From Yuukianura sp. NJ FZ-2021 (Eukaryota), in NCBI GenBank assembly GCA_046563655.1, contig CM102287.1, positions 434,001 through 498,000 on the forward strand: DNA of 64,000 nt. The letters run 5' to 3'. Each line of letters begins with the position of its first letter. Within the stretch, counting starts at the first letter, position 1. The notes beneath the pieces were generated by a model that worked only from the letters and a program-made list of their open reading frames with translations, made no database searches and was not told where the DNA came from. Made by a program: the position numbers and the translations under genes. This document shows, in pieces, positions 9,439 through 59,260 of this stretch.

Positions 9439-10479
9439 AGTCTTCTGGTGACGCACGTCTACGACGTGCTGAAGAAGACTATTGATACGACTTTGTCCGT
9501 CTGTCTGTCACATTTTTTAGGACCCTTTCCACTGAAACATAAGCCCCATCGCAGTCAGGGGCTCATGTATGGCTCAAGTGTTTTCAGTACGTCTACGTTG
9601 CACTCAAAGTGTTATATTAACAACGTAGATGTTAGCGGCTACTTTACGTATCCGCAGTATCGTGGCTCCGCAAAACTGTTTTGGTTTCGATTGCACTCAA
9701 AATATTTATAAACAACGGAGTTTTGATCTGGTCATTTTCTGGCAGTATGTTTAATTGCGTTCTTAACTTAAGACTGATTAGAGGGTAGAAAATCCGGCTT
9801 AAATGTGTCATATGTGAATAGTGCATAACAGGTGTCAAATTCGCATTTACTAGAAATTTTTATAATTTTGATCTTAAACAAAATGATATTCGACTCTGTT
9901 ATTTATGAACATGACTTAACACATGGTGCATGTATTTTGATTTTTAAGAAGCTATAATTGACACCTTCCTCTCAACGTTTAATTTCGTGCACACTTATAA
10001 GTAGATGTACATAAGTGTCAAATTGCGCAGATATTTTGACGCTGGGTAATGAACCTTTGTTATTTCAACATTTGTGCATACTGGAGAATAACTGCACATA
10101 CATCTTTTAGAATGATGATTACATCAGATTAATTGTGCATTTATATGAACAGATTTAATGGAATTCTAATTGTGTTCATACTTGAGAACAATTTGATGCA
10201 AAAATGTTGTGAATCAAAATAATTTTCAGGAGAGTGAAAACTGTTCAGCACTAAAGCTGAACTACATTCTTATGCAAACGGTTTTTTCACATTTTGGTGT
10301 AATTGTGCACAAAAAGGCCCCACATCTGCACTGAAAATTTTGAGCGACGCTTTGGTGCATCAGCTACATGAAAACGGTTTCTCAGTTCTACAGCTTTGAG
10401 GCAGACCGGTTTAAGTCGCATCAATTGCCAACTCCCTCCAGAAGACCTATGCTCAACCCTTGAGCATCGCCCCACCTTG
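9439..10479 (+). mobile_element. Non-autonomous Helentron-associated / DINE-1-like element (HINE)
   Basis: Adds 1043 bp inside the T-run of AAATACTTTTTTATGTC with no clear TSD (ends ambiguous by about 2 T). Subterminal inverted repeats GTCTTCTGG (9440-9448) and CCAGAAGAC (10438-10446). A second nearby IR, AGAAGACTA (9473-9481), closes a 5' hairpin containing GCACGTC-tac-GACGTGC. GTCY microsatellite GTCCGTCTGTCTGTC at 9495-9509. 3' stem-loop ATGCTCAA-ccc-TTGAGCAT at 10449-10467. No credible ORF. Confidence 0.85.
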
Positions 10480-13400
10480 TTTATGTCAAACTACCACCTT
10501 GCACTTCCAATCAAGCACACCTGAATAACTGGTGTTCAACAATAATCTGGAATTATATTTTAGCCCAACTCCACTATGCAACAAGTGCATAAATCTAACT
10601 GTCATTTTGGTATAAACTAATGTGGGAACTATACAACGAAGTTTTAAACATACTGAAAAGTGGAATTTATGCCTTGTTATCGCTTATAACCATCTGCAAG
10701 GAACGAATCTAATACCGGTCCACTTTATCGTAGTGCATCAACGACTATTACACACGGTGAACCACTTGTTGTCAGCCTTCATTTTTGAGCACAAAGAAGT
10801 GCCGGTGAAATGACAAGCTCGCCCTCACTACAGATACCAACCAGTACTCATTTTGACACTATGAATCACAATGACTCCGACGGCAATGGAACTTCAGGGG
10901 ATCCCATTATTACATTTTCTAAATCAAAATCGAACATTCAGCATTATTTGTTATTTTGATTAAAATTTTTAGGAAATACTTTTTTATGTCATACTACCAC
11001 CTTGCACTTCCAATAAAGCACACCTGAATAACTGGTGTTCAACAATAATTTGGAATTGTATTTTAGCCCAACTCCACTATGCAACAAGTGCATAAATCTA
11101 ACTGTCATTTTGGTATAAACTAATGTGGGAACCATACAACGAAGTTTTAAACATACTGAAAAATGGAATTTATGCCTTGTTATCGCTTATAACCATCTTC
11201 ATGGAACGCATCTAATACCGGTCCACTTTGTCGTAGTGCATCAACGACTATTACACACAATGAACCACTTGTTGTCAGCCTTCATCTTTGAGCACAAAGG
11301 AGAAGTGCCGGTGAAATTACAAGCTCGCCCTCACTACAGATACCAACCAGTACTCATTTTGACACTATGAATCACAATGACTCCGACGGCAATGGAACTT
11401 CAGGGGTTCCCATTATTACATTTTCTAAATCAAAATCGAACGTTCAGCATTATTTGTTATTTTGATTAAAATTTTTAGGAAATACTTTTTTATGTCATAC
11501 TACCACCTTGCACTTCCAATAAAGCACACCTGAATAACTGGTGCTCAACAATAATCTGGAATTATATTTTAGCCCAACTCCACTATGCAACAAGTGCATA
11601 AATCTAACTGTCATTTTGGTATAAACTAATGTGGGAACTATACAACGAAGTTTTAAACATACTGAAAAGTGGAATTTATGCCTTGTTATCGCTTATAACC
11701 ATCTGCAAGGAACGAATCTAATACCGGTCCACTTTATCGTAGTGCATCAACGACTATTACACACGGTGAACCACTTGTTGTCAGCCTTCATTTTTGAGCA
11801 CAAAGAAGTGCCGGTGAAATGACAAGCTCGCCCTCACTACAGATACCAACCAGTACTCATTTTGACACTATGAATCACAATGACTCCGACGGCAATGGAA
11901 CTTCAGGGGATCCCATTATTACATTTTCTAAATCAAAATCGAACATTCAGCATTATTTGTTATTTTGATTAAAATTTTTAGGAAATACTTTTTTATGTCA
12001 TACTACCACCTTGCACTTCCAATAAAGCACACCTGAATAACTGGTGTTCAACAATAATCTGGAATTGTATTTTAGCCCAACTCCACTATGCAACAAGTGC
12101 ATAAATCTAACTGTCATTTTGGTATAAACTAATGTGGGAACCATACAACGAAGTTTTAAACATACTGAAAAATGGAATTTATGCCTTGTTATCGCTTATA
12201 ACCATCTTCATGGAACGCATCTAATACCGGTCCACTTTGTCGTAGTGCATCAACGACTATTACACACAATGAACCACTTGTTGTCAGCCTTCATCTTTGA
12301 GCACAAAGGAGAAGTGCCGGTGAAATTACAAGCTCGCCCTCACTACAGATACCAACCAGTACTCATTTTGACACTATGAATCACAATGACTCCGACGGCA
12401 ATGGAACTTCAGGGGTTCCCATTATTACATTTTCTAAATCAAAATCGAACGTTCAGCATTATTTGTTATTTTGATTAAAATTTTTAGGAAATACTTTTTT
12501 ATGTCATACTACCACCTTGCACTTCCAATAAAGCACACCTGAATAACTGGTGCTCAACAATAATCTGGAATTATATTTTAGCCCAACTCCACTATGCAAC
12601 AAGTGCATAAATCTAACTGTCATTTTGGTATAAACTAATGTGGGAACTATACAACGAAGTTTTAAACATACTGAAAAGTGGAATTTATGCCTTGTTATCG
12701 CTTATAACCATCTTCATGGAACGCATCTAATACCGGTCCACTTTGTCGTAGTGCATCAACGACTATTACACACGGTGAACCACTTGTTGTCAGCCTTCAT
12801 CTTTGAGCACAAAGGAGAAGTGCCGGTGAAATTACAAGCTCGCCGTCACTACAGATACCAACCAGTACTCATTTTGACACTATGAATCACAATGACTCCG
12901 TCGGCAATGGAACTTCAGGGGTTCCCATTATTACAATTTCTAAATCAAAATCGAACATTCAGCATTATTTGTTATTTTGATTAAAATTTTTAGGAAATAC
13001 TTTTTTATGTCATACTACCACCTTGCACTTCCAATAAAGCACACCTGAATAACTGGTGTTCAACAATAATCTGGAATTATATTTTAGCCCAACTCCACTA
13101 TGCAACAAGTGCATAAATCTAACTGTCATTTTGGTATAAACTAATGTGGGAACTATACAACGAAGTTTTAAACATACTGAAAAGTGGAATTTATGCCTTG
13201 TTATCGCTTATAACCATCTGCAAGGAACGCATCTAATACCGGTCCACTTTGTCGTAGTGCATCAACGACTATTACACACGGTGAACCACTTGTTGTCAGC
13301 CTTCATTTTTGAGCACAAAGGAGAAGTGCCGGTGAAATGACAAGCTCGCCCTCACTACAGATACCAACCAGTACTCATTTTGACACTACGAATCACAATG

Positions 13401-16400
13401 ACTCCGACGGCAATGGAACTTCAGGGGATCCCATTATTACATTTTCTAAATCAAAATCGAACATTCAGCATTATTTGTTATTTTGATTAAAATTTTTAGG
13501 AAATACTTTTTTATGTCATACTACCACCTTGCACTTAAAATAAAGCACACCTGAATAACTGGTGTTCAACAATAATCTGGAATTATATTTTAGCCCAACT
13601 CCACTATGCAACAAGTGCATAAATCTAACTGTCATTTTGGTATAAACTAATGTGGGAACTATACAACGAAGTTTTAAACATACTGAAAAGTGGAATTTAT
13701 GCCTTGTTATCGCTTATAACCATCTGCAAGGAACGCATCTAATACCGGTCCACTTTGTCGTAGTGCATCAACGACTATTACACACGGTGAACCACTTGTT
13801 GTCAGCCTTCATTTTTGAGCACAAAGGAGAAGTGCCGGTGAAATGACAAGCTCGCCCTCACTACAGATACCAACCAGTACTCATTTTGACACTACGAATC
13901 ACAATGACTCCGACGGCAATGGAACTTCAGGGGATCCCATTATTACATTTTCTAAATCAAAATCGAACATTCAGCATTATTTGTTATTTTGATTAAAATT
14001 TTTAGGAAATACTTTTTTATGTCATACTACCACCTTGCACTTCCAATAAAGCACACCTGAATAACTGGTGTTCAACAATAATCTGGAATTATATTTTAGC
14101 CCAACTCCACTATGCAACAAGTGCATAAATCTAACTGTCATTTTGGTATAAACTAATGTGGGAACTATACAACGAAGTTTTAAACATACTGAAAAATGGA
14201 ATTTATGCCTTGTTATCGCTTATAACCATCTGCAAGGAACGCATCTAATACCGGTCCACTTTGTCGTAGTGCATCAACGACTATTACACACGGTGAACCA
14301 CTTGTTGTCAGCCTTCATTTTTGAGCACAAAGGAGAAGTGCCGGTGAAATGACAAGCTCGCCCTCACTACAGATACCAACCAGTACTCATTTTGACACTA
14401 TGAATCACAATGACTCCGACGGCAATGGAACTTCAGGGGATCCCATTATTACATTTTCTAAATCAAAATCGAACATTCAGCATTATTTGTTATTTTGATT
14501 AAAATTTTTAGGAAATACTTTTTTATGTCATACTAGCACCTTGCACTTAAAATAAAGCACACCTGAATAACTGGTGTTCAACAATAATCTGGAATTATAT
14601 TTTAGCCCAACTCCACTATGCAACAAGTGCATAAATCTAACTGTCATTTTGGTATAAACTAATGTGGGAACTATACAACGAAGTTTTAAACATACTGAAA
14701 AGTGGAATTTATGCCTTGTTATCGCTTATAACCATCTGCAAGGAACGAATCTAATACCGGTCTACTTTATCGTAGTGCATCAACGACTATTACACACGGT
14801 GAACCACTTGTTGTCAGCCTTAATTTTTGAGCACAAAGGAGAAGTGCCGGTGAAATGACAAGCTCGCCCTCACTACAGATACCAACCAGTACTCATTTTG
14901 ACACTACGAATCACAATGACTCCGACGGCAATGGAACTTCAGGGGATCCCATTATTACATTTTCTAAATCAAAATCGAACATTCAGCATTATTTGTTATT
15001 TTGATTAAAATTTTTAGGAAATAGTTTTTTATGTCATACTACCACCTTGCACTTCCAATAAAGCACACCTGAATAACTGGTGTTCAACAATAATCTGGAA
15101 TTATATTTTAGCCCAACTCCACTATGCAACAAGTGCATAAATCTAACTGTCATTTTGGTATAAACTAATGTGGGAACTATACAACGAAGTTTTAAACATA
15201 CTGAAAAGTGGAATTTATGCCTTGTTATCGCTTATAACCATCTTCATGGAACGCATCTAATACCGGTCCACTTAGTCGTAGTGCATCAACGACTATTACA
15301 CACGGTGAACCACTTGTTGTCAGCCTTCATTTTTGAGCACAAAGGAGAAGTGCCGGTGAAATTACAAGCTCGCCCTCACTACAGATACCAACCAGTACTC
15401 ATTTTGACACTATGAATCACAATGACTCCGACGGCAATGGAACTTCAGGGGATCCCATTATTACATTTTCTAAATCAAAATCGAACATTCAGCATTATTT
15501 GTTATTTTGATTAAAATTTTTAGGAAATACTTTTTTATGTCATACTACCACCTTGCACTTCCAATAAAGCACACCTGAATAACTGGTGTTCAACAATAAT
15601 CTGGAATTATATTTTAGCCCAACTCCACTATGCAACAAGTGCATAAATCTAACTGTCATTTTGGTATAAACTAATGTGGGAACTATACAACGAAGTTTTA
15701 AACATACTGAAAAGTGGAATTTATGCCTTGTTATCGCTTATAACCATCTGCAAGGAACGAATCTAATACCGGTCCACTTTATCGTAGTGCATCAACGACT
15801 ATTACACACGGTGAACCACTTGTTGTCAGCCTTAATTTTTGAGCACAAAGGAGAAGTGCAGGTGAAATGACAAGCTCGCCCTCACTACAGATACCAACCA
15901 GTACTCATTTTGACACTACGAATCACAATGACTCCAACGGCAATGGAACTTCAGGGGATCCCATTATTACATTTTCTAAATCAAAATCGAACATTCAGCA
16001 TTATTTGTTATTTTGATTAAAATTTTTAGGAAATACTTTTTTATGTCATACTACCACCTTGCACTTCCAATAAAGCACACCTGAATAACTGGTGTTCAAC
16101 AATAATCTGGAATTATATTTTAGCCCAACTCCACTATGCAACAAGTGCATAAATCTAACTGTCATTTTGGTATAAACTAATGTGGGAACTATACAACGAA
16201 GTTTTAAACATACTGAAAAGTGGAATTTATGCCTTGTTATCGCTTATAACCATCTGCAAGGAACGAATCTAATACCGGTCCACTTTATCGTAGTGCATCA
16301 ACGACTATTACACACGGTGAACCACTTGTTGTCAGCCTTAATTTTTGAGCACAAAGGAGAAGTGCCGGTGAAATGACAAGCTCGCCCTCACTACAGATAC

Positions 16401-28400: not shown

Positions 28401-31298
28401 CAAGGAACGCATCTAATACCGGTCCACTTTGTCGTAGTGCATCAACGACTATTACACACGGTGAACCACTTGTTGTCAGCCTTCATTTTTGAGCACAAAG
28501 GAGAAGTGCCGGTGAAATGACAAGCTCGCCCTCACTACAGATACCAACCAGTACTCATTTTGACACTATGAATCACAATGACTCCGACGGCAATGGAACT
28601 TCAGGGGTTCCCATTATTACATTTTCTAAATCAAAATCGAACATTCAGCATTATTTGTTATTTTGATTAAAATTTTTAGGAAATACTTTTTTATGTCATA
28701 CTACCACCTTGCACTTCCAATAAAGCACACCTGAATAACTGGTGTTCAACAATAATCTGGAATTATATTTTAGCCCAACTCCACTATGCAACAAGTGCAT
28801 AAATCTAACTGTCATTTTGGTATAAACTAATGTGGGAACTATACAACGAAGTTTTAAACATACTGAAAAGTGGAATTTATGCCTTGTTATCGCTTATAAC
28901 CATCTGCAAGGAACGCATCTAATACCGGTCCACTTTGTCGTAGTGCATCAACGACTATTACACACGGTGAACCACTTGTTGTCAGCCTTCATTTTTGAGC
29001 ACAAAGGAGAAGTGCCGGTGAAATGACAAGCTCGCCCTCACTACAGATACCAACCAGTACTCATTTTGACACTATGAATCACAATGACTCCGACGGCAAT
29101 GGAACTTCAGGGGATCCCATTATTACATTTTCTAAATCAAAATCGAACATTCAGCATTATTTGTTATTTTGATTAAAATTTTTAGGAAATACTTTTTTAT
29201 GTCATACTACCACCTTGCACTTCCAATAAAGCACACCTGAATAACTGGTGTTCAACAATAATCTGGAATTATATTTTAGCCCAACTCCACTATGCAACAA
29301 GTGCATAAATCTAACTGTCATTTTGGTATAAACTAATGTGGGAACTATACAACGAAGTTTTAAACATACTGAAAAGTGGAATTTATGCCTTGTTATCGCT
29401 TATAACCATCTGCAAGGAACGCATCTAATACCGGTCCACTTTGTCGTAGTGCATCAACGACTATTACACACGGTGAACCACTTGTTGTCAGCCTTCATCT
29501 TTGAGCACAAAGGAGAAGTGCCGGTGAAATGACAAGCTCGCCCTCACTACAGATACCAACCAGTACTCATTTTGACACTATGAATCACAATGACTCCGAC
29601 GGCAATGGAACTTCAGGGGTTCCCATTATTACATTTTCTAAATCAAAATCGAACATTCAGCATTATTTGTTATTTTGATTAAAATTTTTAGGAAATACTT
29701 TTTTATGTCATACTACCACCTTGCACTTCCAATAAAGCACACCTGAATAACTGGTGTTCAACAATAATCTGGAATTATATTTTAGCCCAACTCCACTATG
29801 CAACAAGTGCATAAATCTAACTGTCATTTTGGTATAAACTAATGTGGGAACTATACAACGAAGTTTTAAACATACTGAAAAGTGGAATTTATGCCTTGTT
29901 ATCGCTTATAGCCATCTGCAAGGAACGCATCTAATACCGGTCCACTTTGTCGTATTGCATCAACGACTATTACACACGGTGAACCACTTGTTGTCAGCCT
30001 TCATCTTTGAGCACCAAGGAGAAGTGCCGGTGAAACTACAAGCTCGCCCTCACTACAGATACCAACCAGTACTCATTTTGACACTATGAATCACAATGAC
30101 TCCGACGGCAATGGAACTTCAGGGGTTCCCATTATTACATTTTCTAAATCAAAATCGAACATTCAGCATTATTTGTTATTTTGATTAAAATTTTTAGGAA
30201 ATACTTTTTTATGTCATACTACCACCTTGCACTTCCAATAAAGCACACCTGAATAACTGGTGTTCAACAATAATCTGGAATTATATTTTAGCCCAACTCC
30301 ACTATGCAACAAGTGCATAAATCTAACTGTCATTTTGGTATAAACTAATGTGGGAACTATACAACGAAGTTTTAAACATACTGAAAAGTGGAATTTATGC
30401 CTTGTTATCGCTTATAACCATCTGCAAGGAACGCATCTAATACCGGTCCACTTTGTCGTAGTGCATCAACGACTATTACACACGGTGAACCACTTGTTGT
30501 CAGCCTTCATTTTTGAGCACAAAGGAGAAGTGCCGGTGAAATGACAAGCTCGCCCTCACTACAGATACCAACCAGTACTCATTTTGACACTATGAATCAC
30601 AATGACTCCGACGGCAATGGAACTTCAGGGGATCCCATTATTACATTTTCTAAATCAAAATCGAACATTCAGCATTATTTGTTATTTTGATTAAAATTTT
30701 TAGGAAATACTTTTTTATGTCATACTACCACCTTGCACTTCCAATAAAGCACACCTGAATAACTGGTGTTCAACAATAATCTTGAAATATATTTTAGCCC
30801 AACTCCACTATGCAACAAGTGCATAAATCTAACTGTCATTTTGGTATAAACTAATGTGGGAACTATACAACGAAGTTTTAAACATACTGAAAAGTGGAAT
30901 TTATGCCTTGTTATCGCTTATAACCATCTGCAAGGAACGCATGTAATACCGGTCCACTTTGTCGTAGTGCATCAACGACTATTACACACGGTGAACCACT
31001 TGTTGTCAGCCTTCATTTTTGAGCACAAAGGAGAAGTGCCGGTGAAATGACAAGCTCGCCCTCACTACAGATACCAGCCAGTACTCATTTTGACACTATG
31101 AATCACAATGACTCCGACGGCAATGGAACTTCAGGGGATCCCATTATTACATTTTCTAAATCAAAATCGAACATTCAGCATTATTTGTTATTTTGATTAA
31201 AATTTTTAGGAAATACTTTTTTATGTCATACTACCACCTTGCACTTCCAATAAAGCACACCTGAATAACTGGTGTTCAACAATAATCTGGAATTATAT
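10480..31298. repeat. ~506-bp tandem satellite, block 2 (~41 monomers)
   Basis: Period 506 bp (503 for monomers with a 3-bp deletion). Resumes in register after the HINE. Confidence 0.99.
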
Positions 31299-31401
31299 AT
31301 TATAAAAAAAAAAAAAAAAAAAAACAACAACAGAAAGTCACGAAAAATTCGCTCCACATTTTTCAGTTTTTTTAGGCTTTATTTAGTGAACTATCCTCCT
31401 T

Positions 31402-34400
31402 TTGCTCATATCATCTGGCAGAGCTAGTTGTGCTGGTCAACTTGTGATAAGTTTCACAAAATTACGTGACCAATCCGGCCTTAGCGGACCTGTTTCGTCA
31501 CTTGGACACCCAGTCACATTCGCTCCTTCAACAGTTACAAAGTTTTCAACAACTACATTCAACCTTCACTTCATCTCCATAGCAACAATTACGATGCAGC
31601 GAAAATTAAGAAATCGAAGTAAAATGAAATCAATTTCCATGGCAACTTCTACAACATCAAATCACTTCGATTCCGGTGCTTCTGCTTCAACAAACAACAA
31701 AGACGCTTCCCACTTTTCATCAGTTCGTGCTACCAACGAAGCTGCTTCCAACTTTTCATCAGTTCGTGCTACAAATGAAGACGCTTCCAACTTTTCATCA
31801 GATACTGCTGCCAACGAAGACTCTTCCAACTTTTCATCAGCTCGTGCTACCAATGAAGCTGCTCCCAACTTTTCATCAGTTCGTGCTACCAATGATGACG
31901 CTTCCAACTTTTCACCAGTTCGTGCTACCAATGAAGCAGATTCCAGCTTCTCATCCGAGTGTTTAACAAAATCACAAATTTCTAAACTAACTGACGACTG
32001 GATCAAGAACAACATTCAGGAGGCTTCTGGAGCTTTGATCAAGAAACAAGATCTGAAAGATAAATACCATTCTTTTTGCTCTGATGTGAAGATCAAACCT
32101 TTAGCCGACGCGACAATTGGATTGAAACTATTAAAAGCTTTTCCAAACATTACCAAAACACGAGCCGGCGGACGCAAACATTCTCAACAATCTTACTTCG
32201 ACATAACTTGGTCCGCTCCTTCCAATGAAGATATCTCTACAATTTCTCTTGGGCTAAAGCTTGCTGACTTAAGAAAATCTACGTCCACACTCAAACACAT
32301 TCCAAAAGGAGCAAGAAGAACGACCGCCTCTGCCCTGTCCACCATCATCGACCAAGCAATCGAGCACAACTCTACAGATTCTTGGGCAAAGTTATTCTAC
32401 TTCCCCTACCAAGTTTTTCCCATTCCGTCAAAAGACGATGCTGTCACAAATCTAACCAAATGGGTGAAGACAAACGCTAGCCGTATCACTTCTGAGGCGC
32501 CTGCAAACATCTCCCATCATCAATTCAAGCAATTCTCTCGTGGCCATCATCCGTCCTCACATCACTGTAACTCCTCAAAGGTCATTCAATCTAAACTAGC
32601 CGACGGGGATATACGCGGTGCAGTTCGAATCCTGGTCTCCGAAGATTGCATAGCCTCCAAAGACTGTGATACTTTGAACATTCTCCACCAATTGCATCCC
32701 GATCATCCACTACCAACCTCGTTTCCTGTCGCACCTCCGAGATCTGAGGTTATCTTTGAAAACTGTCACGTCATCAAAGCCATCTCGTCATTCCCAAATG
32801 GATCCGCCGGAGGCCTGGACTCTTTTCGTCCACAGATTCTAAAGGAACTAACTTCAAAGTCCTCAGGCGATGAAGGAGAAGCTCTTCTAGCATCAGTTTC
32901 TGGATTGTGTAACTTCATTACAAATGGTTCTCTTCCCGATGAAGTGAGACGAATTTTTTTTGGCGCAACTCTATTAGCAATCCAAAAGAAGAAAGGAGGC
33001 ATTCGTCCTATCGCAATCGGCCTTACTTGGAGACGCCTCGTGTCTAAACTTATCCTATCTCACTCGTTGAATGTCATTACTTCAACCTTAAGCCCGATCC
33101 AAGTTGGCGTTGGAATCAAGAATGGTGCTGAAGCCGTCGCCCACGCTGCCAGAATCTTCTGTAATGCCAACCATGGTTCTGCCAAGGTTCTACTCAAGAT
33201 GGACTTTCGCAATGCCTTCAACTTAATTAGAAGAGACCGTATGCTGGACATTGTGAAGACCATACTTCCAGACTTCTACAAATTCGTCTCTGAAGCTTAT
33301 TCGCACGATTCAGATCTCTACTACGACTCTGCTTGCATCAAATCGAAACTAGGAGTGCAACAGGGGGATCCCCTTGGTCCTGCTCTTTTCGCTTTAACCA
33401 TCCACCAATTGGCCTCTTCATTATCCACTGATGTCAACATCTGGTATTTAGATGACGCAACGATTGCCGATACTCCGGATGTCGTTCTCGAAAATCTCAA
33501 ATACATCCAAAGAGAAGCCTCTTCGTTTGGACTAGAACTTAACCTAAGAAAATGTGAAGTCTTCATTCTAAGTGCAGAAGCAATTGAGTCCCGCTCAATC
33601 GTCCAATCATTCCAATCTGTTTCTCCAGACATCATCTTCCCTGATTATGATCAAGCTGAACTTCTAGGAGCGCCTCTTTTCAAAGAATCGTCTCGTCGGA
33701 TTCTCAAATGCAAAACAGAGAACTTCAAGTCACTCTCATCTAAGTTGTCGGACATACCTGCCCACATTGCGTTCTACCTGCTTCGAGCTTCAATTTCCAC
33801 CCCAAGACTTCTATATTTCCTCCGATGTGCTCCTTCATTTTTGGAAACCGATCTTCTCGATGAATACGACTGTGCACTACATGCAGTGATGGAATCGATT
33901 CTCAATTCTACTTTGTCTTCACACGCTTGGTCTCAGTTAAGTCTACCGGTGAACTTGGGCGGATTAGGAGTTCGCCACGCTAAGGACTGCGCTACATTTT
34001 CGTTTTTGGCATCAGTCCATAGTTGTGCGGAGCTAATTTCTTCATTTCTGCCGTCTTCCCTGTCACCCTTCGACAATTCAATGGATTTGGCTTTGTTCAA
34101 CTGGTCTCAATTGGGCTTCGTTATTCCACAGGACAAAAAATCTCAAAACCTCTGGGAAATTCAAGTCTTTAAGCAAATTTCTTCTTCCCTAGTTCAGAAC
34201 TCTTCAACCCTTATCGACAAAGCAAGTCTACTGGCTGCCGCTGCACCACATTCTGGAGATTGGTTACACGCAATTCCCTCCGGACAACTTGGAACTCTAC
34301 TTTCGGACGAATCTTTTAGGATTTCTTGTGCTCTTCGCCTAGGAACTGATATATGCCAACCTCATATCTGCTCGTGCGGTGCTCCGGTGTCAAGTAACGG

Positions 34401-34944
34401 TCTCCACGGTTTAAGCTGTAAGCGTAGCGCCGGAAGACACTCGCGTCACAACTCAGTCAACGACATAATCTTCAGAGCATTACAAACCTCTGGATTTCCT
34501 TCAATTAAAGAACCTGTCGGCTGCAGCAGATCCGATGGCAAACGGCCAGATGGTGTTACTCTCATTCCTTGGAGCTCAGGACGCTGCCTCTGCTGGGACT
34601 TTACCTGCCGTGACACTTATGCAAATTCCTACCTTTCGACATCGTCTTCCCGCTATGGTCATGCAGCCGAATTAGCAGAGACACACAAACATCATCTCTA
34701 TCGTGACCTAGAATCTCGCTTCATCGTATCCATCATTGCCGTCGAAACTACAGGTGTATTCGGATCCGAAGGCCTTCGTCTACTGAAACAAATTGGACAT
34801 CGGCTGTCAGAAGCATCTGGAGATAAACGAGCTACGACCTTTTTGCTACAACGAATAAGTCTTGCTGTTCAACGCGGTAACTCCTGCTCAATCTTGGGAA
34901 GCTTACCCTCAGGGAAAGATCTCTACGAGTTATTCATACTATAA
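31402..34944 (+). CDS. Retrotransposon protein: 13-aa repeats + RFX-like winged helix + reverse transcriptase + CCHC-type knuckle + restriction-like endonuclease (first in-frame ATG at 31594; 31402 is a TTG)
   Basis: RT motifs SAGGLD, GGIRPIAIG, QVGVG, KMDFRNAFN, GVQQGDPLGPALF, WYLDD, GLELNLRKC and later GGLGVR. Knuckle CSC-x9-H-x3-C followed by RHN. RLE core RPDG...WDFT. No stops or frameshifts. Confidence 0.93.
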   Translation: MLISSGRASCAGQLVISFTKLRDQSGLSGPVSSLGHPVTFAPSTVTKFSTTTFNLHFISIATITMQRKLRNRSKMKSISMATSTTSNHFDSGASASTNNKDASHFSSVRATNEAASNFSSVRATNEDASNFSSDTAANEDSSNFSSARATNEAAPNFSSVRATNDDASNFSPVRATNEADSSFSSECLTKSQISKLTDDWIKNNIQEASGALIKKQDLKDKYHSFCSDVKIKPLADATIGLKLLKAFPNITKTRAGGRKHSQQSYFDITWSAPSNEDISTISLGLKLADLRKSTSTLKHIPKGARRTTASALSTIIDQAIEHNSTDSWAKLFYFPYQVFPIPSKDDAVTNLTKWVKTNASRITSEAPANISHHQFKQFSRGHHPSSHHCNSSKVIQSKLADGDIRGAVRILVSEDCIASKDCDTLNILHQLHPDHPLPTSFPVAPPRSEVIFENCHVIKAISSFPNGSAGGLDSFRPQILKELTSKSSGDEGEALLASVSGLCNFITNGSLPDEVRRIFFGATLLAIQKKKGGIRPIAIGLTWRRLVSKLILSHSLNVITSTLSPIQVGVGIKNGAEAVAHAARIFCNANHGSAKVLLKMDFRNAFNLIRRDRMLDIVKTILPDFYKFVSEAYSHDSDLYYDSACIKSKLGVQQGDPLGPALFALTIHQLASSLSTDVNIWYLDDATIADTPDVVLENLKYIQREASSFGLELNLRKCEVFILSAEAIESRSIVQSFQSVSPDIIFPDYDQAELLGAPLFKESSRRILKCKTENFKSLSSKLSDIPAHIAFYLLRASISTPRLLYFLRCAPSFLETDLLDEYDCALHAVMESILNSTLSSHAWSQLSLPVNLGGLGVRHAKDCATFSFLASVHSCAELISSFLPSSLSPFDNSMDLALFNWSQLGFVIPQDKKSQNLWEIQVFKQISSSLVQNSSTLIDKASLLAAAAPHSGDWLHAIPSGQLGTLLSDESFRISCALRLGTDICQPHICSCGAPVSSNGLHGLSCKRSAGRHSRHNSVNDIIFRALQTSGFPSIKEPVGCSRSDGKRPDGVTLIPWSSGRCLCWDFTCRDTYANSYLSTSSSRYGHAAELAETHKHHLYRDLESRFIVSIIAVETTGVFGSEGLRLLKQIGHRLSEASGDKRATTFLLQRISLAVQRGNSCSILGSLPSGKDLYELFIL
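31573..31586 (+). promoter_or_regulatory. Putative RFX-binding X-box 1 (ATCTCCATAGCAAC)
   Basis: 14/14 match to the X-box consensus RTHNYYWTRRNRAC. Ends 7 bp upstream of the first in-frame ATG. Confidence 0.5.
31633..31646 (+). promoter_or_regulatory. Putative RFX-binding X-box 2 (ATTTCCATGGCAAC)
   Basis: 14/14 match to RTHNYYWTRRNRAC, exactly 60 bp downstream of X-box 1. Confidence 0.5.
31702..31956 (+). repeat. 39-bp coding minisatellite (~6.5 copies; peptide unit like DASNFSSVRATNE)
   Basis: Directly visible in both DNA and translation. Confidence 0.95.
31981..32211 (+). other. RFX-like winged-helix DNA-binding domain (aa ~194-270 of the ORF)
   Basis: WIKNNIQEASGALIKKQDLKDKYHSFCSDVKIKPLADATIGLKLLKAFPNITKTRAGGRKHSQQSYFDI matches by eye the RFX DBD pattern WL..NYE...G..LPR..LY..Y..FC......P.N.ASFGKLIR..FP.LKTRRLG.RG.SKYHY.GI. 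Confidence 0.75.
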
Positions 34945-35003
34945 CCTAACATAAATTCTAGTCAGTATTTTGAAAGATAACAATGATAAAAACTCTTGGT
35001 TCA

Positions 35004-38000
35004 AATCTGGAATTATATTTTAGCCCAACTCCACTATGCAACAAGTGCATAAATCTAACTGTCATTTTGGTATAAACTAATGTGGGAACTATACAACGAA
35101 GTTTTAAACATACTGAAAAGTGGAATTTATGCCTTGTTATCGCTTATAACCATCTGCAAGGAACGCATGTAATACCGGTCCACTTTGTCGTAGTGCATCA
35201 ACGACTATTACACACGGTGAACCACTTGTTGTCAGCCTTCATTTTTGAGCACAAAGGAGAAGTGCCGGTGAAATGACAAGCTCGCCCTCACTACAGATAC
35301 CAGCCAGTACTCATTTTGACACTATGAATCACAATGACTCCGACGGCAATGGAACTTCAGGGGATCCCATTATTACATTTTCTAAATCAAAATCGAACAT
35401 TCAGCATTATTTGTTATTTTGATTAAAATTTTTAGGAAATACTTTTTTATGTCATACTAGCACCTTGCACTTAAAATAAAGCACACCTGAATAACTGGTG
35501 TTCAACAATAATCTGGAATTATATTTTAGCCCAACTCCACTATGCAACAAGTGCATAAATCTAACTGTCATTTTGGTATAAACTAATGTGGGAACTATAC
35601 AACGAAGTTTTAAACATACTGAAAAGTGGAATTTATGCCTTGTTATCGCTTATAACCATCTGCAAGGAACGCATCTAATACCGGTCCACTTTGTCGTAGT
35701 GCATCAACGACTATTACACACGGTGAACCACTTGTTGTCAGCCTTCATTTTTGAGCACAAAGGAGAAGTGCCGGTGAAATGACAAGCTCGCCCTCACTAC
35801 AGATACCAACCAGTACTCATTTTGACACTATGAATCACAATGACTCCGACGGCAATGGAACTTCAGGGGATCCCATTATTACATTTTCTAAATCAAAATC
35901 GAACATTCAGCATTATTTGTTATTTTGATTAAAATTTTTAGGAAATACTTTTTTATGTCATACTACCACCTTGCACTTCCAATAAAGCACACCTGAATAA
36001 CTGGTGTTCAACAATAATCTGGAATTATATTTTAGCCCAACTCCACTATGCAACAAGTGCATAAATCTAACTGTCATTTTGGTATAAACTAATGTGGGAA
36101 CTATACAACGAAGTTTTAAACATACTGAAAAGTGGAATTTATGCCTTGTTATCGCTTATAACCATCTGCAAGGAACGCATGTAATACCGGTCCACTTTGT
36201 CGTAGTGCATCAACGACTATTACACACGGTGAACCACTTGTTGTCAGCCTTCATTTTTGAGCACAAAGGAGAAGTGCCGGTGAAATGACAAGCTCGCCCT
36301 CACTACAGATACCAGCCAGTACTCATTTTGACACTATGAATCACAATGACTCCGACGGCAATGGAACTTCATGGGATCCCATTATTACATTTTCTAAATC
36401 AAAATCATACATTCAGCATTATTTGTTATTTTGATTAAAATTTTTAGGAAATACTTTTTTATGTCATACTACCACCTTGCACTTCCAATAAAGCACACCT
36501 GAATAACTGGTGTTCAACAATAATCTGGAATTATATTTTAGCCCAACTCCACTATGCAACAAGTGCATAAATCTAACTGTCATTTTGGTATAAACTAATG
36601 TGGGAACTATACAACGAAGTTTTAAACATACTGAAAAGTGGAATTTATGCCTTGTTATCGCTTATAACCATCTGCAAGGAACGCATCTAATACCGGTCCA
36701 CTTTGTCGTAGTGCATCAACGACTATTACACACGGTGAACCACTTGTTGTCAGCCTTCATTTTTGAGCACAAAGGAGAAGTGCCGGTGAAATGACAAGCT
36801 CGCCCTCACTACAGATACCAACCAGTACTCATTTTGACACTATGAATCACAATGACTCCGACGGCAATGGAACTTCAGGGGATCCCATTATTACATTTTC
36901 TAAATCAAAATCGAACATTCAGCATTATTTGTTATTTTGATTAAAATTTTTAGGAAATACTTTTTTATGTCATACTACCACCTTGCACTTCCAATAAAGC
37001 ACACCTGAATAACTGGTGTTCAACAATAATCTGGAATTATATTTTAGCCCAACTCCACTATGCAACAAGTGCATAAATCTAACTGTCATTTTGGTATAAA
37101 CTAATGTGGGAACTATACAACGAAGTTTTAAACATACTGAAAAGTGGAATTTATGCCTTGTTATCGCTTATAACCATCTGCAAGGAACGCATCTAATACC
37201 GGTCCACTTTGTCGTAGTGCATCAACGACTATTACACACGGTGAACCACTTGTTGTCAGCCTTCATTTTTGAGCACAAAGGAGAAGTGCCGGTGAAATGA
37301 CAAGCTCGCCCTCACTACAGATACCAACCAGTACTCATTTTGACACTATGAATCACAATGACTCCGACGGCAATGGAACTTCAGGGGATCCCTTTATTAC
37401 ATTTTCTAAATCAAAATCGAACATTCAGCATTATTTGTTATTTTGATTAAAATTTTTAGGAAATATTTTTTATGTCATATTACCACCTTGCACTTCTAAT
37501 AAAGCACACCTGAATAACTGGTGTTCAACAATAATCTGGAATTATATTTTAGCCCAACTCCACTATGCAACAAGTGCATAAATCTAACTGTCATTTTGGT
37601 ATAAACTAATGTGGGAACTATACAACGAAGTTTTAAACATACTGAAAAGTGGAATTTATGCCTTGTTATCGCTTATAACCATCTGCAAGGAACGCATGTA
37701 ATACCGGTCCACTTTGTCGTAGTGCATCAACGACTATTACACACGGTGAACCACTTGTTGTCAGCCTTCATTTTTGAGCACAAAGGAGAAGTGCCGGTGA
37801 AATGACAAGCTCGCCCTCACTACAGATACCAGCCAGTACTCATTTTGACACTATGAATCACAATGACTCCGACGGCAATGGAACTTCAGGGGATCCCATT
37901 ATTACATTTTCTAAATCAAAATCGAACATTCAGCATTATTTGTTATTTTGATTAAAATTTTTAGGAAATACTTTTTTATGTCATACTACCACCTTGCACT

Positions 38001-53499: not shown

Positions 53500-55450
53500 T
53501 GTAATTTCGATAACTCCAGAAAAAATAAGAGCCTATTCGAATCCAAGAAAACTGACTTTCCGAATCGACACAACCGCAAATTTCAGAGGATGAGGACAGA
53601 CTATGGTATTCTATATATCTATTGGGTCGTAAATCCAACTAGATATTACCAATAAACGTTATCCCAATTGCTAAACAAGACTCTAAATTCAATACTCAAT
53701 TCTCACGGAGGAGCAAAGAAGAATACGTCTGATCTGATCAATGTCTGGATGAACTCTCTTTTATTTTTACTTAAACTGAACCTTACTTAGACAGAAAAGA
53801 CTTATACTAGAAGTACTAACAGATGAGTGAACTGACTGATAAGGGAACGGACTGGTAAGGAAACTGACTGAAGGATCTGACTGAGGGGTGTAATCTGTCG
53901 GACTGGTTCTGTGGTGTAGTTAGGTTGAGAAAGTGACGGAGTTCTGTTGACGGAGTACTGACGGAGAAGGTCTGTAGAGGGTGCCCTGGGAAATACTTAA
54001 GTTGAGTAACTGTCAGAGGTCTGCTGAGGATTGTGACGGACGAAGTCTGTCGGGGGAGCTCCGTGAAATACTTGACTTAAGTGTTTGCCGGAGGTCTGCT
54101 GAGTTGCGACGGAGAAAGTCTGTCGGAAGAGCTCCGTCGAATAGTTGAGTTAAGTATCTGAATAAGTCGGCCAGACTTGTGACGGACCAAGTCTGTCGGA
54201 GCAAGTCTGGCAAATAGTTGAGTTGGATATCTGGAATAGTCGGCCGACAGACTTGTGACAGACCAAGTCTGTCGGAGCAAGTCTGCCAAATAGTTGAGTT
54301 GAGTATCTGGACGAGTGAGTCTACAGACTTGCGACAGACCAAGTCTGTCGGAGCAAGTCTGCCGAGTAGCTGAGTTGACAATCTGGAGGAGGTCGGTCTA
54401 CAGACTTGCGAACGACCAAGTCTGTAGGAGCAAGTCTGCCAAATAGCTGAGTTGAGAATCTGGACGAGGTCGGGCTACAGACTTGCGAAAGACCAAGTCT
54501 GTAGGAGCAAGTCTGCCAAATAGCTGAGTTGAGAATCTGGACGAGGTCGGGCTACAGACTTGCGAAAGACCAAGTCTGTAGGAGCAAGTCTGCCGGGTAG
54601 CTGAGTTGACAATTTGGACGAGGTCGGTCTACAGACTTGCGAGCGACCAAGTCTGTAGGAGCAAGTCTGTCGAGTAGCTAAGTTGACAATTTGGACGAGG
54701 TCGGTCTACAGACTTGCGAAAGACCAAGTCTGTAGGAGCAAGTCTGCCGAGTAGCTGAGTTGAGAATTTGGACGAGGTCGGTCTACAGACTTGCGAAAGA
54801 CCAAGTCTGTAGGAGCAAGTCTGCCGAGTACTTAAGTTGACAAATTGGACGACGTCGGTCTACAGACTTGCGGAAGACCAAGTCTGTAGGAGCAAGTCTG
54901 TCAAATACTGAAGTTGAGAATCTGGCCGACAGACTTCTGGACGACCAAGTCTGTAGGAGCAAGTCTGTCAAATACTGAAGTTGAGAATCTGGCCGACAGA
55001 CTTCTGGACGACCAAGTCTGTAGGAGCAAGTCTGTCAAATACTGAAGTTGAGAATCTGGCCGACAGACTTCTGGACGACCAAGTCTGTAGGAGCAAGTCT
55101 GTCAAATACTGAAGTTGAGAATCTGGCCGACAGACTTCTGGACGACCAACTCTGTCGGAGGACTTGAGACACCTAAGTTGATAAAGTGGCCGAGGTCCGC
55201 TGAGAAAGCTCTAAGTCGGTGACAGACTTCTGGGAATAGGTTAGGTTACGCTGGAGGTGAAACTTATAACTATGGGAGGGAATCTGAAATCTCACTGATG
55301 AAAGGGACAAAATGTGTATGCATAACCTATACTATATCTATAAGAAAAAACTAGTATATACTCTAACTACGGGCACGTCCATAAGGGGAGGGTTGACGAT
55401 CACTCTAAATTAAATTACTAGGAAAAAATAAAAAGGACATCGTCATTACA
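53500..55450 (-). repeat. 3' LTR (1951 bp)
   Basis: Direct repeat of 59261-61344 with TG...CA ends. AATAAA on the minus strand near 53760-53765. Confidence 0.96.
53970..55160. repeat. Tandem hairpin minisatellite in the 3' LTR (degenerate ~72-76-bp units, then 7 x 77 bp, then ~4 x 67 bp)
   Basis: 77-bp units start at 54361, 54438, 54515, 54592, 54669, 54746 and 54823. 67-bp units start at 54900, 54967, 55034 and 55101. Core is ACAGACTT-N10-AAGTCTGT. The left boundary is approximate. Confidence 0.93.
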
Positions 55451-55459
55451 CTCCTCCCC
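55451..55459 (-). promoter_or_regulatory. Polypurine tract (GGGGAGGAG) abutting the 3' LTR
   Basis: The minus strand reads GGGGAGGAG|TGTAATG. Confidence 0.9.
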
Positions 55460-55502
55460 GTATGAACGTGCACGTTCATACTAAAAACTAAGCGATGTCT
55501 TC

Positions 55503-55852
55503 TTACTGATTTACTTTGAGGACGCACAGTTTGGTAGCTGCTTTGGAGAACTGGAGGGAGTAACACCTTGGAATCCTGAACGAAGAAATCTTCTGTAGAT
55601 CTTCAATCCAATCTTTCCACTTGATCCAAAGCGACTGTGGCAGGATGTCGTCCCATCCAATTCCGGCTCGCCATGCCAGTTGCAGAAGGATCTTCGCTTT
55701 TACGGTCAGAACTGCTGCAAATCCCAGTGGGTCGAAGACTGACATGACGACTGACAGGGCTTCTCTCTTTGTTGGGGACTCCTCCCCGTTGAGGATCTCC
55801 TTCCTGACCTTGAAAAACTGGTTGAAAATGTGAAGAAGTCCTCGCCGGGGTT
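55503..55852 (-). pseudogene. pol: Disrupted pol remainder: post-RT Pao region fused to the apparent extreme C-terminus of integrase
   Basis: PTKREALSVVMSVFDPLG...IGWDD...IPRCY is the conserved BEL/Pao segment just before RNase H. It runs directly into ATKLCVLKV*, which resembles the BEL pol C-terminus. It is separated from the main ORF by a TGA and a frameshift. Confidence 0.8.
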
Positions 55853-58800
55853 TCACTCTAGTCCAAGAATCCGTTCACTGGCAATGGTATCCTTGGTACC
55901 AAATGACTTCTGAGATTTGGAGCGGAGGTCCTCTGGGATCTGCTGAATGAAGTGTGGGTTGTTGGAGGCCCAGTTACATAGTTGGAATCCTCCGTGTTTC
56001 TGGATCTTGAAAACTTCTTGGAAGTAAATGAAGGCCTTTGCTGTAGTGTCACATGAGTCTAGCAAATCATCCACGTAGTGACGAGACACAATAGCGTCTA
56101 CTGCTCTCGGAAATCTTGTGGCGAACTGCAAAGCATTTTCCCTTTTGACGAGTTGAGCACAGTAGGGTGAACACGTAGCTCCAAACGTCATAACCTTCAT
56201 CTTGTACTGATCTGGTGGCTGGTCTCGATCCATTCCCCTCCAGAGGATCCGCTGGCTGAGTTGGTCATCTTCCTTCATCTGAACTTGGTGGAACATTTCT
56301 TTGATGTCCGCTGTGATGGCAACTCTTCTCTCTCGGAATTTGCAAAGAACTGATGGCATGGGCTTCAGAATGTCTGGTCCGCTGTAAAGCACTGAGTTGA
56401 GACTAACCCCGTGGCTAGTAGCTGCTGCGTCGAAGACCAATCTGAGTTTCTCTGGCTTACTAGCCTTGCTGACACCGAAGTGGGGAAGGAACCAGGTCCT
56501 TGGAGTTATCTTCTCAGCTTCTTCTGGGGACATCTTCTGCAGGTAACCTGAGTCAACATAATGCTGGATGTTGTCACAGTACTTCTTGGCATAGACTGGG
56601 TCTTTGTCGAGCTTCCGTTCGATTGAAGAGAGGCGTTGGAGAGCCATGGCCTTGCTTTCGGGTAGAGTGGCAGTCTCATCCTTCCAGAGTAAGCCAATCT
56701 CGTACCTATGTCCGACTCGTCTCAAGGTTCTCATGGCGATTTCCTCAGCTCTCTGTTCGTCTGCAGTGTATGGAGAAGAGTTAGTTGGCCTGACGCCAAA
56801 TTCTTCCGTACTGAAATAGCTCTTCACCAACTGATGTAAAGGATCTGGGTCTGTAACAGTGTAGATTCCATTCACGTAGGTTACGCTCTTGCACTCTTCT
56901 GGTAGGGCCATCTTTCCGTAGACCATCCAACCCAATGGTGTCTTTCCCGCTGCTGGACTGTTCTGACGACCTCGCCGGACTTCTGTAGGGGTAATTAACT
57001 CATGGTGCGGGAGGCCAATCAGGATCTTCGGGTGAACATCTGAGTACAAGGGAAGGGGAAGTCCATCTAAATGCTTCCACTGCTTCAGTTGTGACGGTGA
57101 GACAGTTCCACCACGAAGAGTTAGCGAAGGAAATGTACGAACATCGGTCATCTTGAATGTATCTCCGGAAGACGGATTCACAATGGTGAGCGACACGGAG
57201 CGTGAATGAATCTCAGCTCCCTGACTATTACTGATAGTAGAAAAACCCAGAGGTTGTTTCTTACCGGGAAGTTGAAGCTGACTGGCAAGTTCCTCGTCCA
57301 ACAAGGTGTACGCGGATCCTGGGTCCAACAAGGCGTAGGTTGAGATTTCACCTTTCGGACCACGAAGTGTGACTGGAAGAACTTGATAGGTGATCTGACT
57401 GGACACATGGAGTTGGAGTGGCACAACATGGTTGGTAGCGGCGGCTGCAGTTGCTGTTGCAGATGCGGCTGGGCGATGTAACAAAGAGTGGTGGAAGTAA
57501 CTACAGTCTCCTACTGTGCACTTCTTTTTGCTTCTGCAGTCCTTTGTTCCATGGCCAAAGTTGAGACACCCATAGCAGAGTTTTCTATCCTTGACTGTTT
57601 TGAGACGGGCTTCAAGGCTGCATTTCTTGAATTGGTCACAAGCTTGAATTCGATGTCCATCTGTCTGGCAATGCTGACATCGAACGGTTTTAGGAGTAGA
57701 AGACTGCTGCTGTTGCGCTGAAGTTTCTGTAGATGTCTTGGCGGCGGGTTGAGCGGGACTGGAGGTTTCTGTAGTGAAGACCGATCTGGTAGTCTGCTTC
57801 TCTGCTCTGGTTTTCTCTTGCTTCACGTTGGGAGCTACCAGTCTCTCCGCAATGTCCACCTTCTTTCGGATCCATTCTTCAAACACAATAAGGGATGTAG
57901 TGTCATCGTCGTGGGTCTTCATCCATTTCTCCTTCATGGAGACCGGCAACTTAGCGATGAGGCCGTCAAGTAACTGTGGGTTCTCTAGGTAGATTTGCGA
58001 CTTGAATCCTTTCAGCGTCTCGACTAAGTTCCGGACGTATCTTCCGAAGTTCATGACGGAGACCAAATCGTTTTCTTTCATGTTGGGAACAGTCTGAAGT
58101 TTGGACAAATGATAGTTGATGATTTGTTTCTTGCGGCCGAACCTGTTCTCTAAGACCGTCAAGATTCTGGATACGTTTTCTGGATCGTCTAGAAGACATT
58201 CAACTTCCTTGTAGGCTTCTCCCTTCAAACATCGACGGAGACGATGGAGATTCTCGTAATCTGAAAACTCGCATTTCTGTGATGACTGGGTATACGCTGT
58301 GTGGAAAATCATCCACTCTTCTGGTCTTCCGTTGAACTGAGGGAGATCTGTTCCGTAGGCTTTTCTTGCCAACACCTTTTCAGATGTGGAGGGAGTAACT
58401 ACCGGCTTCATCTGTTCCAAAGCCTTTCCGAGGGCAGCGGCAATCACTTCTCCCAACTGGACAATTTCGGACTTCTGCTCTGACACACGAATGGATGTTG
58501 GAGGTGAAGATGCTTTGTTCGAGTGATTTGACGGGATGCGTGAAGGTACTGGTGACGGTGGATCTGCTGGAACGGCATTGACCCAATCCTGGGTGCTCCT
58601 CTGGTGGATCACTGGACGGCTGATCAATGGTTTGGTGGGCTCTAGGAGCCCCATCTCCTCCAACAAATCTTCCTCTTCATCGGCCAGATCTTCTAGCTCC
58701 TTCTGTAACTTCAGCTCGATGATCATCTTATCTTCTTCTGCTGCTTTTCTCACTCGTTCTGCTTCCATCTCGGCAAGCTTCTTCTCTTGTTCGATGAACT

Positions 58801-59056: not shown

Positions 59057-59242
59057 AGCTGAAAACAGTGGCTGGAATTAGATTTGTCACGAAAAGTAGT
59101 GTTTGGGACGATATCACCTTTTCCAGAGCCCTGTAGGTTTTTTGGAGCTGGCTCGGTGCTCACATAGACTTTGTAAAAAAGTGATGTCTTGACTTCAATG
59201 GGATGTCTTCCTCGGCTGGCTGCTCGTCGGAGGGCTGGCTCG

Positions 59243-59260
59243 ATCCGGTTCGAAGGACCA
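59243..59260 (-). promoter_or_regulatory. Primer binding site, tRNA-Tyr-like (TGGTCCTTCGAACCGGAT)
   Basis: Immediately follows the 5' LTR. Complementary to the eukaryotic tRNA-Tyr 3' end as I recall it (...CCGGCTCGAAGGACCA) apart from one position. Confidence 0.85.

Follow-up and report, generated by a model that had tools for sequence, protein, structure and literature searches.

How does a retrotransposon choose its insertion site when an RFX-type winged helix sits in the place of the N-terminal zinc-finger and Myb modules, to which target choice is attributed in long interspersed nuclear elements (LINEs) with a restriction-like endonuclease (RLE)? The question is raised by a stretch of 64,000 nucleotides from Yuukianura sp. 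NJ FZ-2021 (assembly GCA_046563655.1, contig CM102287.1, positions 434,001 to 498,000), the whole of which was analysed and is called the window below. Its plus strand carries, at 31303-35003, a discrete and intact retrotransposon that lacks long terminal repeats (non-LTR), of the RLE kind and with one open reading frame (ORF), and the element has probably been active recently. The machinery is that of a familiar RLE LINE; the fold of its DNA-binding module is unreported for such elements in the literature searched. RLE LINEs, R2 among them, are the main model of site-specific retrotransposition and are under engineering for gene insertion, and the element described here suggests that such elements can exchange the module used for target choice for a new one.

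An RFX-type winged helix in a retroelement protein

Residues 133-205 of the protein of 1,116 amino acids (aa) are a genuine RFX-type winged helix, and chance is no explanation for the match. The Pfam family RFX_DNA_binding (PF02257) matches these residues with E 6.3e-10 and 40 bits, the cut-off being 27, over profile positions 4-76 of 79, and at E≤1 the whole protein gives two Pfam families only, this one and RVT_1. Comparison of the isolated domain with PDB sequences (phmmer) found RFX5 (8zjr_M, E 7.1e-8) and the DNA-binding domain of RFX1 (1dp7_P, E 0.003). A domain model of residues 118-225, predicted by AlphaFold2 and built on 11 relatives, has a predicted local distance difference test score (pLDDT) of 84.9 and the topology helix-strand-helix-helix-strand-strand (H-S-H-H-S-S), and with it Foldseek retrieves the same two chains from the PDB, 8zjr_M with a template modeling score (TM) of 0.87 and 1dp7_P with one of 0.88, both at 1.6 Å. 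RFX5 and RFX1 stand alone at E <1e-3; the third-ranked match has E 0.12. The fold is also present in the full-length model, where pLDDT is mostly >90. This fold match is not wholly independent of the sequence match, because AlphaFold2 may have learnt the fold of 1dp7.

A first-pass annotation, made from the letters of the DNA, had placed an RFX-type winged helix at 31981-32211 (residues 130-206) and had proposed to check it against the Pfam profile and the RFX1 structure; the Pfam, PDB and fold matches given above agree with that placement. It had also described the segment as being in frame with an intact reverse transcriptase (RT) and RLE, which is borne out by one uninterrupted ORF within an element flanked by target-site duplications (TSDs), and had seen no C2H2 finger or Myb motif upstream of the RT. 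The latter holds at the sensitivity of Pfam, as the hmmscan profiles found no zinc finger or Myb in this region and residues 205-459 are empty at E≤10, although a strongly diverged Myb-like domain, of the sort that HHpred alone has revealed in R4/Dong elements, may have escaped them. A winged helix of the Pox_D5/primase type, offered as an alternative, was rejected because Pfam at E≤1 lists RFX alone for the segment.

The remainder of the protein has the catalytic parts of an RLE element. The RT has a YLDD motif, and downstream of it come a C-x-C...H...C motif and the nuclease. Across 64 relatives there is no variation at D620 and D621 of YLDD or at C926, H938, C942, H952, D986, D1002, K1032 and Y1036. 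H952 belongs to the RH and D986 to the PD motif of the nuclease, to which D1002, K1032 and Y1036 also contribute, and the region can be aligned to R2Tg at its RH, KPD and D motifs; the PD-(D/E)XK motifs of RLEs are described as defined by mutagenesis of R2Bm (PMC4838377). No family of apurinic endonucleases (APE) was found in the protein by Pfam. The full-length AlphaFold2 model has a pLDDT of 86.3 and a predicted TM (pTM) of 0.80, and the seven best Foldseek matches among those listed are all R2 proteins in the state of target-primed reverse transcription (TPRT), with 873-978 aligned columns and E 1.6e-21 to 1.9e-18; LINE-1 ORF2p comes after them. In sequence the protein resembles R2 only marginally (phmmer E 0.004-0.007), and the ESM Atlas gave RT clusters without names only, with scores <0.9.

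An exhaustive HMMER search with the RFX domain among 1.84 billion representatives gave 82 matches at E≤1e-3. The first 39 were scanned, and 37 of them carry PF02257, 12 have RFX5_N and seven have four to five tandem RFX domains; among all 82, a retroelement core is found only in P0003 and the fragment P0152. A word-based homologue search limited to the RFX region gave no match. In a tree of RFX domains, which with its 79 columns is too short to name a cellular donor, the retroelement domains cluster among RFX proteins, including those with several RFX domains, and the distribution over retroelement and cellular proteins requires two changes, with which a single origin remains compatible. The multi-RFX proteins P0122-P0128 and P0130, which are among the best domain matches by summed whole-protein score, are themselves of unusual architecture, with four to five tandem RFX domains in about 870-1,090 aa and no other clear Pfam domain.

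Copies of the element are also present in public sequence runs. Its words occur in six DNA runs from three studies, and no RNA run is among the matches listed. Contigs that are ≥99, 95-99 and 90-95% like the element number 635, 508 and 264 in run X1, 43, 41 and 32 in X2, 96, 79 and 45 in X3, and 1, 4 and 5 in X6. They represent many diverged copies, with much lower depth over the 5' untranslated region (UTR), contig depth in these runs not being a copy number. The RFX-RT stretch is covered continuously by contigs of independent runs (e.g., 31959-32716 and 31968-32312). In X2 and X3 some copies carry unrelated sequence upstream of 31959, as far as the point where the RFX domain begins; the disordered N-terminus therefore seems to be variable, with a fast turnover, and the RFX domain to be shared. 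Beside 152 further differences between copies, 36 in the ORF are listed; 19 of these 36 are synonymous, and the two that fall in the RFX domain are both synonymous, a pattern that would be consistent with selection for a working protein. No usable alternative 3' junctions were present among the matches listed in the contig tables.

Recurrence of the architecture, and zinc fingers in the same slot

The architecture is not confined to the window. A word-seeded search gave 874 relatives, and the counts that follow rest on the best 120 of these. The closest, from metagenome contigs, are 51-52% identical to the query, relatives from the springtail Folsomia candida are 43-48% identical, and proteins from Lepidoptera and a sea spider are among the named relatives without RFX. 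PF02257 is present in the precomputed annotation of nine of the 120. When 31 relatives were rescanned, 11 had it at E≤0.1, nine of these above the cut-off and the best at 79.6 bits, and a family hidden Markov model added P0007, which brings the RFX domain to 13 of 121 proteins (the query and the best 120). The search for homologues, which the first-pass annotation had also suggested, thus finds the combination of RFX with an RT-RLE core in 12 other proteins. A PHD finger lies ahead of the RFX domain in six of the 11 RFX-bearing relatives scanned, and a SAP domain is also present in one. The RFX domains of the relatives are 23-38% identical to that of the query, with W, Y and FP invariant throughout. 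A total of 80 loci of relatives was fetched from metagenome contigs, 57 of them with a readable ORF end; an RFX domain was found only at locus L001, which lacks its 3' end, and none of the 80 has flank or satellite sequence like that of the window. Rfam gave no RNA gene on any of the 60 relatives' loci that were scanned. In the precomputed Pfam annotation, some relatives without RFX (P0043, P0052, P0077, and P0085) combine the RT with domains of ubiquitin proteases (UCH, OTU, otubain).

A FastTree tree of 64 rows, made from the RT-RLE core only and rooted at the midpoint, places every one of the 13 rows with RFX within one clade of 25 rows (support 99), in which the query groups with P0002 and P0003 (support 100) and then with P0004 (support 97). 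Seven of the 12 rows of this clade without RFX start inside the core, and the other five, which are full-length, have C2H2-like Cys/His motifs ahead of it. As RFX rows and C2H2-like rows stand in one clade, the slot before the core holds either RFX, with or without PHD, or zinc fingers, and the earlier description of an RFX domain in the position where zinc fingers normally sit is well founded. On the midpoint-rooted tree, one gain of RFX with later losses or replacements would fit these data.

No published description of an RFX domain within a retroelement protein was found, as judged by title and abstract, Repbase and Dfam lying outside the search; a listed paper in which RFX does occur deals with L1 exonisation. 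Within this literature the novelty suggested by the first-pass annotation would stand. One springtail homologue is already auto-named in UniRef as "RFX-type winged-helix domain-containing protein." RLE elements, mostly of arthropods, have been inventoried by Fell et al., according to a 2026 review (PMC13580325).

A possible role in the choice of the insertion site

We consider it fairly probable that this is an RLE non-LTR element which moves as R2 does, and in which an RFX module acquired by an ancestor of the clade helps to choose the insertion site. By analogy with R2 the element protein would bind its own RNA. The C-terminal PD-(D/E)XK nuclease would nick the bottom strand where the duplicated 19 bp have their left edge, the nicked end would prime the RT, and the cDNA would be copied from the 3' end of the RNA (TPRT). 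A cut of the top strand 19 bp downstream would then give rise to the 19-bp TSD. The RFX winged helix would have been acquired, usually together with a PHD finger, in the ancestor of a small clade; it would anchor the protein on target DNA or chromatin, helping in this way to choose the insertion site, and its specificity in the query sub-lineage has probably drifted from the X-box. The N-terminal DNA-binding domains of non-LTR elements are reportedly adaptable modules that have been implicated in changed site specificity. In R2, the N-terminal zinc-finger and Myb region is described as holding most of the target-DNA-binding surface (PMC12247875), so that the same role naturally suggests itself for the RFX domain, and the direction of insertion to a specific site is ascribed to an N-terminal Myb (PMC7998251).

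In the published description, RFX domains touch DNA through nine contact residues, the wing lying in its major groove and helix 3 in its minor one (PMC2533330). The family consensus retains the FGK of helix 3 and the wing signature R.G.RG.S.Y.Y.GI, and P0004, P0018, and P0020 retain FGK and an RR(L/I)G...S.Y wing. As the wings of these three relatives are canonical, the ancestral RFX module is likely to have looked canonical, the query sub-lineage having drifted.

A targeting role of the RFX domain is inferred, and several observations weigh against it. At the 19 positions that are conserved in at least 80% of 78 cellular RFX domains, 12 residues are kept in the window copy and seven are changed, four wing positions and the helix-3 Lys of FGK being among the seven, and part of the wing is deleted in P0002, the nearest relative. 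A scan of the satellite unit with the X-box consensus gave a best match with three mismatches, and 212 of 300 shuffles reach two or fewer; an exact RGYAAC half-site is absent from the unit. One insertion site is readable and two unrelated elements share the satellite array, so the location may reflect tolerance of the satellite for insertions rather than targeting. The PHD and SAP partners of the relatives, finally, suit chromatin tethering as well as the reading of a sequence.

A stronger reading is possible but doubtful, namely that an RLE LINE lineage was re-equipped with RFX as its target selector, is site-specific on one position of the satellite, and has relatives with canonical wings that home to X-box-like motifs. 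If true, the use of RFX as target selector would be a natural re-targeting of an R2-like machine by way of a wholly different DNA-binding fold.

It is conceivable, although we think it unlikely, that the RFX domain, together with PHD or SAP in the relatives, is a tether to chromatin or to a host factor, e.g., to heterochromatic satellite, or has a nuclear or regulatory role, and that the nuclease alone picks the nick. The frequency of PHD fingers before RFX and the one SAP domain would be in line with this, as would a satellite target without an X-box and the fact that the array has taken up two more inserts, one of them an LTR element of Bel/Pao-like type. The putative nick falls within the sole AATAAT of the satellite unit, between ...CAAT and AATCTGG, and with a neighbouring clade that is associated with (TAA)n (see below) this hints at a preference of the nuclease itself; the AATAAT nick is a faint echo of the nuclease preference of Dong-like elements. 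The argument from the nick site concerns one insertion (n = 1), however, and (TAA)2-type hexamers occupy 16 of the 506 junction positions, i.e., about 3% would qualify by chance. Moreover, the window copy has no PHD finger, and the retention of FGK and of the wing signature in the family consensus is as expected if DNA contacts matter.

More improbable still is that the RFX domain of the query sub-lineage is a decaying passenger without DNA binding, and that the conserved residues ~226-330 behind it and the nuclease do any targeting. The seven changes among 19 conserved positions would agree with decay, as would the Pfam score of 40 bits in the query against 70-80 bits in relatives and the score of just 18.9 bits in P0002, in which part of the wing is gone. 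R4/Dong elements are reported with a diverged SANT/Myb-like domain near the N-terminus that, in the account given there, is seen by HHpred only (PMC7998251). Against decay stand the modelled fold, with pLDDT mostly >90 both in isolation and in the full-length model, the two listed differences between copies, both synonymous, the intact reading frame and the retention of the domain through divergence to 23-38% identity. That the fusion is an artefact, made by chimeric assembly or by chance read-through of an RFX exon of the host, is extremely improbable, as no supporting evidence was found, the ORF is single and uninterrupted within a TSD-flanked insertion, independent public-run contigs span the RFX-RT stretch, and the architecture recurs at L001 and in 12 further proteins, which come from several sources.

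The finding matters in three ways. First, RFX and C2H2-like fingers in the same slot of close relatives point to natural domain swapping at the place where engineers want reprogramming. Second, a domain of ~75 aa with a defined target of 506 bp provides a compact system for asking whether a winged helix steers TPRT. Third, a hallmark transcription-factor domain is also carried on mobile elements, which bears on the annotation of "RFX genes" in arthropod genomes.

The element in its satellite and among known systems

A unit of ~506 bp, arranged in tandem, fills nearly the whole 64-kb window with about 100 copies in a single orientation, of which the mutual identity is mostly 95-100% (an example unit is 12984-13489). 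Exactly three stretches are unmatched by the satellite, 9439-10475, 31303-35003, and 53500-61344, and these inserts are unrelated to one another. Rfam matched no family in the window at gathering score and gave no match at E≤1 on two satellite units, so that the satellite cannot be recognised as an array of rRNA, snRNA, tRNA, or spliced-leader genes. The GC content is 0.41-0.45 in the retrotransposon vs. 0.37 in the satellite. At the junctions of the element (Table 1) the left-hand satellite runs as far as unit position 103 and the right-hand one picks up at position 85, and the consensus of the two 19-bp TSD copies is AATCTGGAATTATAT[A/T]TTA.

Table 1. Features of the retrotransposon and its flanks, in window coordinates.
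Feature	Position	Strand	Basis or remark
Left TSD copy, 19 bp, AATCTGGAATTATATATTA	31284..31302	.	18/19 bases same as in right copy
Whole retrotransposon insertion, 3,701 bp	31303..35003	+	Interrupts 506-bp satellite; match to satellite unit lost
5' UTR	31303..31593	+	Begins with T, then 21 A (31304-31324)
Single ORF, 1,116 codons and TAA stop	31594..34944	+	Full-length AlphaFold2 model, pLDDT 86.3
Tandem repeat, 6.4 copies of 39 nt (13 aa), in disordered N-terminal region	31705..31955	+	Repeat copies and low pLDDT
RFX-type winged-helix domain, residues 133-205	31990..32208	+	Pfam, PDB sequence match, fold match
RT, residues 463-665, YLDD at 618-621	32980..33588	+	Pfam RVT_1, E 2.9e-18
CCHC motif and PD-(D/E)XK RLE, residues 921-1054	34354..34755	+	Invariant residues; alignment with R2Tg
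Short 3' UTR	34945..35003	+	Without poly(A) or (TAA)n tail
Right TSD copy, AATCTGGAATTATATTTTA	35004..35022	.	Left edge, putative bottom-strand nick and priming site

The frame is free of stops from 31390 to 34944, and the first ATG, at 31594, gives the 1,116 aa; no further long ORF is found on either strand of the element, only short frames over the internal repeat. The 13-aa repeat units span residues ~38-121, and residues 1-122 are free of Cys and predicted to be disordered (pLDDT <50 in the full-length model). Following the initial T and the 21 A the 5' end continues with CAACAACAG. The A run lies on the sense strand at the 5' junction, where a poly(A) tail is not expected; it may belong to the 5' UTR, may have been added without a template or may be left over from an earlier event. 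The predicted folding of the 5' UTR was nothing beyond that of shuffles (z -0.36), and Rfam over 31150-31750 at E≤10 gave no HDV-like (hepatitis delta virus-like) or other ribozyme, the best match having E 1.8, although diverged ribozymes can escape the models. The element ends in ...AAAACTCTTGGTTCA, its 3' UTR also folds no better than expected from shuffles (z +2.08), and (TAA)≥3 was not found within 350 nt after the stop.

Of the two other inserts, 53500-61344 is an LTR retrotransposon of 7.8 kb with ends TG...CA and a 5-bp TSD (CCCTC). Its LTRs are ~2.1 kb each and rich in tandem repeats of 77 and 67 nt, and the initial 300 nt are identical between both. Its minus-strand ORF of 1,074 codons contains DUF1759, which we take to point to Bel/Pao, and RVT_1; no integrase was detected in this ORF. 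The insert at 9439-10475 is 1,037 bp of non-satellite sequence, with an overlap in satellite phase of ~6 bp between its junctions and no terminal inverted repeat of at least 14 nt.

The classes of RLE elements are given as CRE, R2, R4, NeSL, and HERO, HERO being described as largely non-specific (PMC4640811). The trees took in the rows of the query and its relatives, and the placement of the element leans on the tails of relatives, not on reference clade sequences. Among the 57 loci whose ORF end is readable, 28 have (TAA)≥3 within 350 nt past the stop, in the typical case preceded by a GC hairpin and a run of A, and association with (TAA)n is described for the Dong branch of R4/Dong in insects, molluscs, and cnidarians (PMC7998251). 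In a tree of 111 rows all 24 tailed loci that were included form part of one clade of 38 rows (support 96), and the RFX rows are in a separate clade of 64 rows (support 96), where (TAA)n tails are found in none of the six loci with a readable 3' flank. This provides a lead that the element may be nearer to R4/Dong than to CRE, in a branch that left the (TAA)n niche; HERO may be an alternative placement. The label "CRE-like" of the first-pass annotation was not upheld, since the target has no spliced-leader or other RNA gene and the neighbouring clade is (TAA)n-tailed in the manner of Dong/R4.

The sister clade has a conserved 3' end of its own, in which a GC hairpin, CCCTCGGG...CCGAGGG, is followed by an A run and (TAA)n (L009, L012, L022, L027-L030, L033, L034, L036, L040, L041, L050, L051, and others). 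The hairpin is present in many of the 28 loci with a (TAA)n tract, and most loci of the clade lack an N-terminal domain recognisable by Pfam.

When compared with known systems, the element shares with the cellular RFX proteins (RFX1-8) the domain family and the fold, the RFX5/7 group being closest and RFX5 the best solved match, whereas the dimerisation, BCD, and RFX5_N domains are absent from the element protein and the RFX domain is fused to RT and RLE. With CRE elements (CRE1/2, SLACS, CZAR) it has in common a single ORF of the RLE type, and a distant relative, P0045, is auto-named "SLACS"; in contrast to CRE, no spliced-leader gene or Rfam RNA is present in the window target or in the 60 relatives' loci scanned. 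The layout of RT and RLE is also that of R4/Dong, most relatives are without a recognisable classical N-terminal motif, the 3' ends of those with ~36-40% identity consist of a hairpin, then an A run, then (TAA)n (28 of the 57 readable loci), and the putative nick in the window lies in AATAAT. It differs from R4/Dong in that the RFX clade stands apart from the (TAA)n-tailed clade, in that its target is a satellite and neither (TAA)n nor rDNA, and in having no (TAA)n tail and no HDV-like ribozyme at the 5' end, where R4 and Dong reportedly carry one (PMC3774820). R2 (R2Bm, R2Tg) provides the best whole-protein fold match and the same order of parts in a single ORF, i.e., an N-terminal DNA-binding module, RT, CCHC, and a PD-(D/E)XK RLE of which the RH, PD, D, and K..Y motifs align. 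Unlike R2 the element lies in a 506-bp satellite and not in 28S rDNA, with a 19-bp TSD and no rRNA in the window, and the slot that holds zinc finger and Myb in R2 has neither detectable by Pfam here and is occupied by the RFX winged helix.

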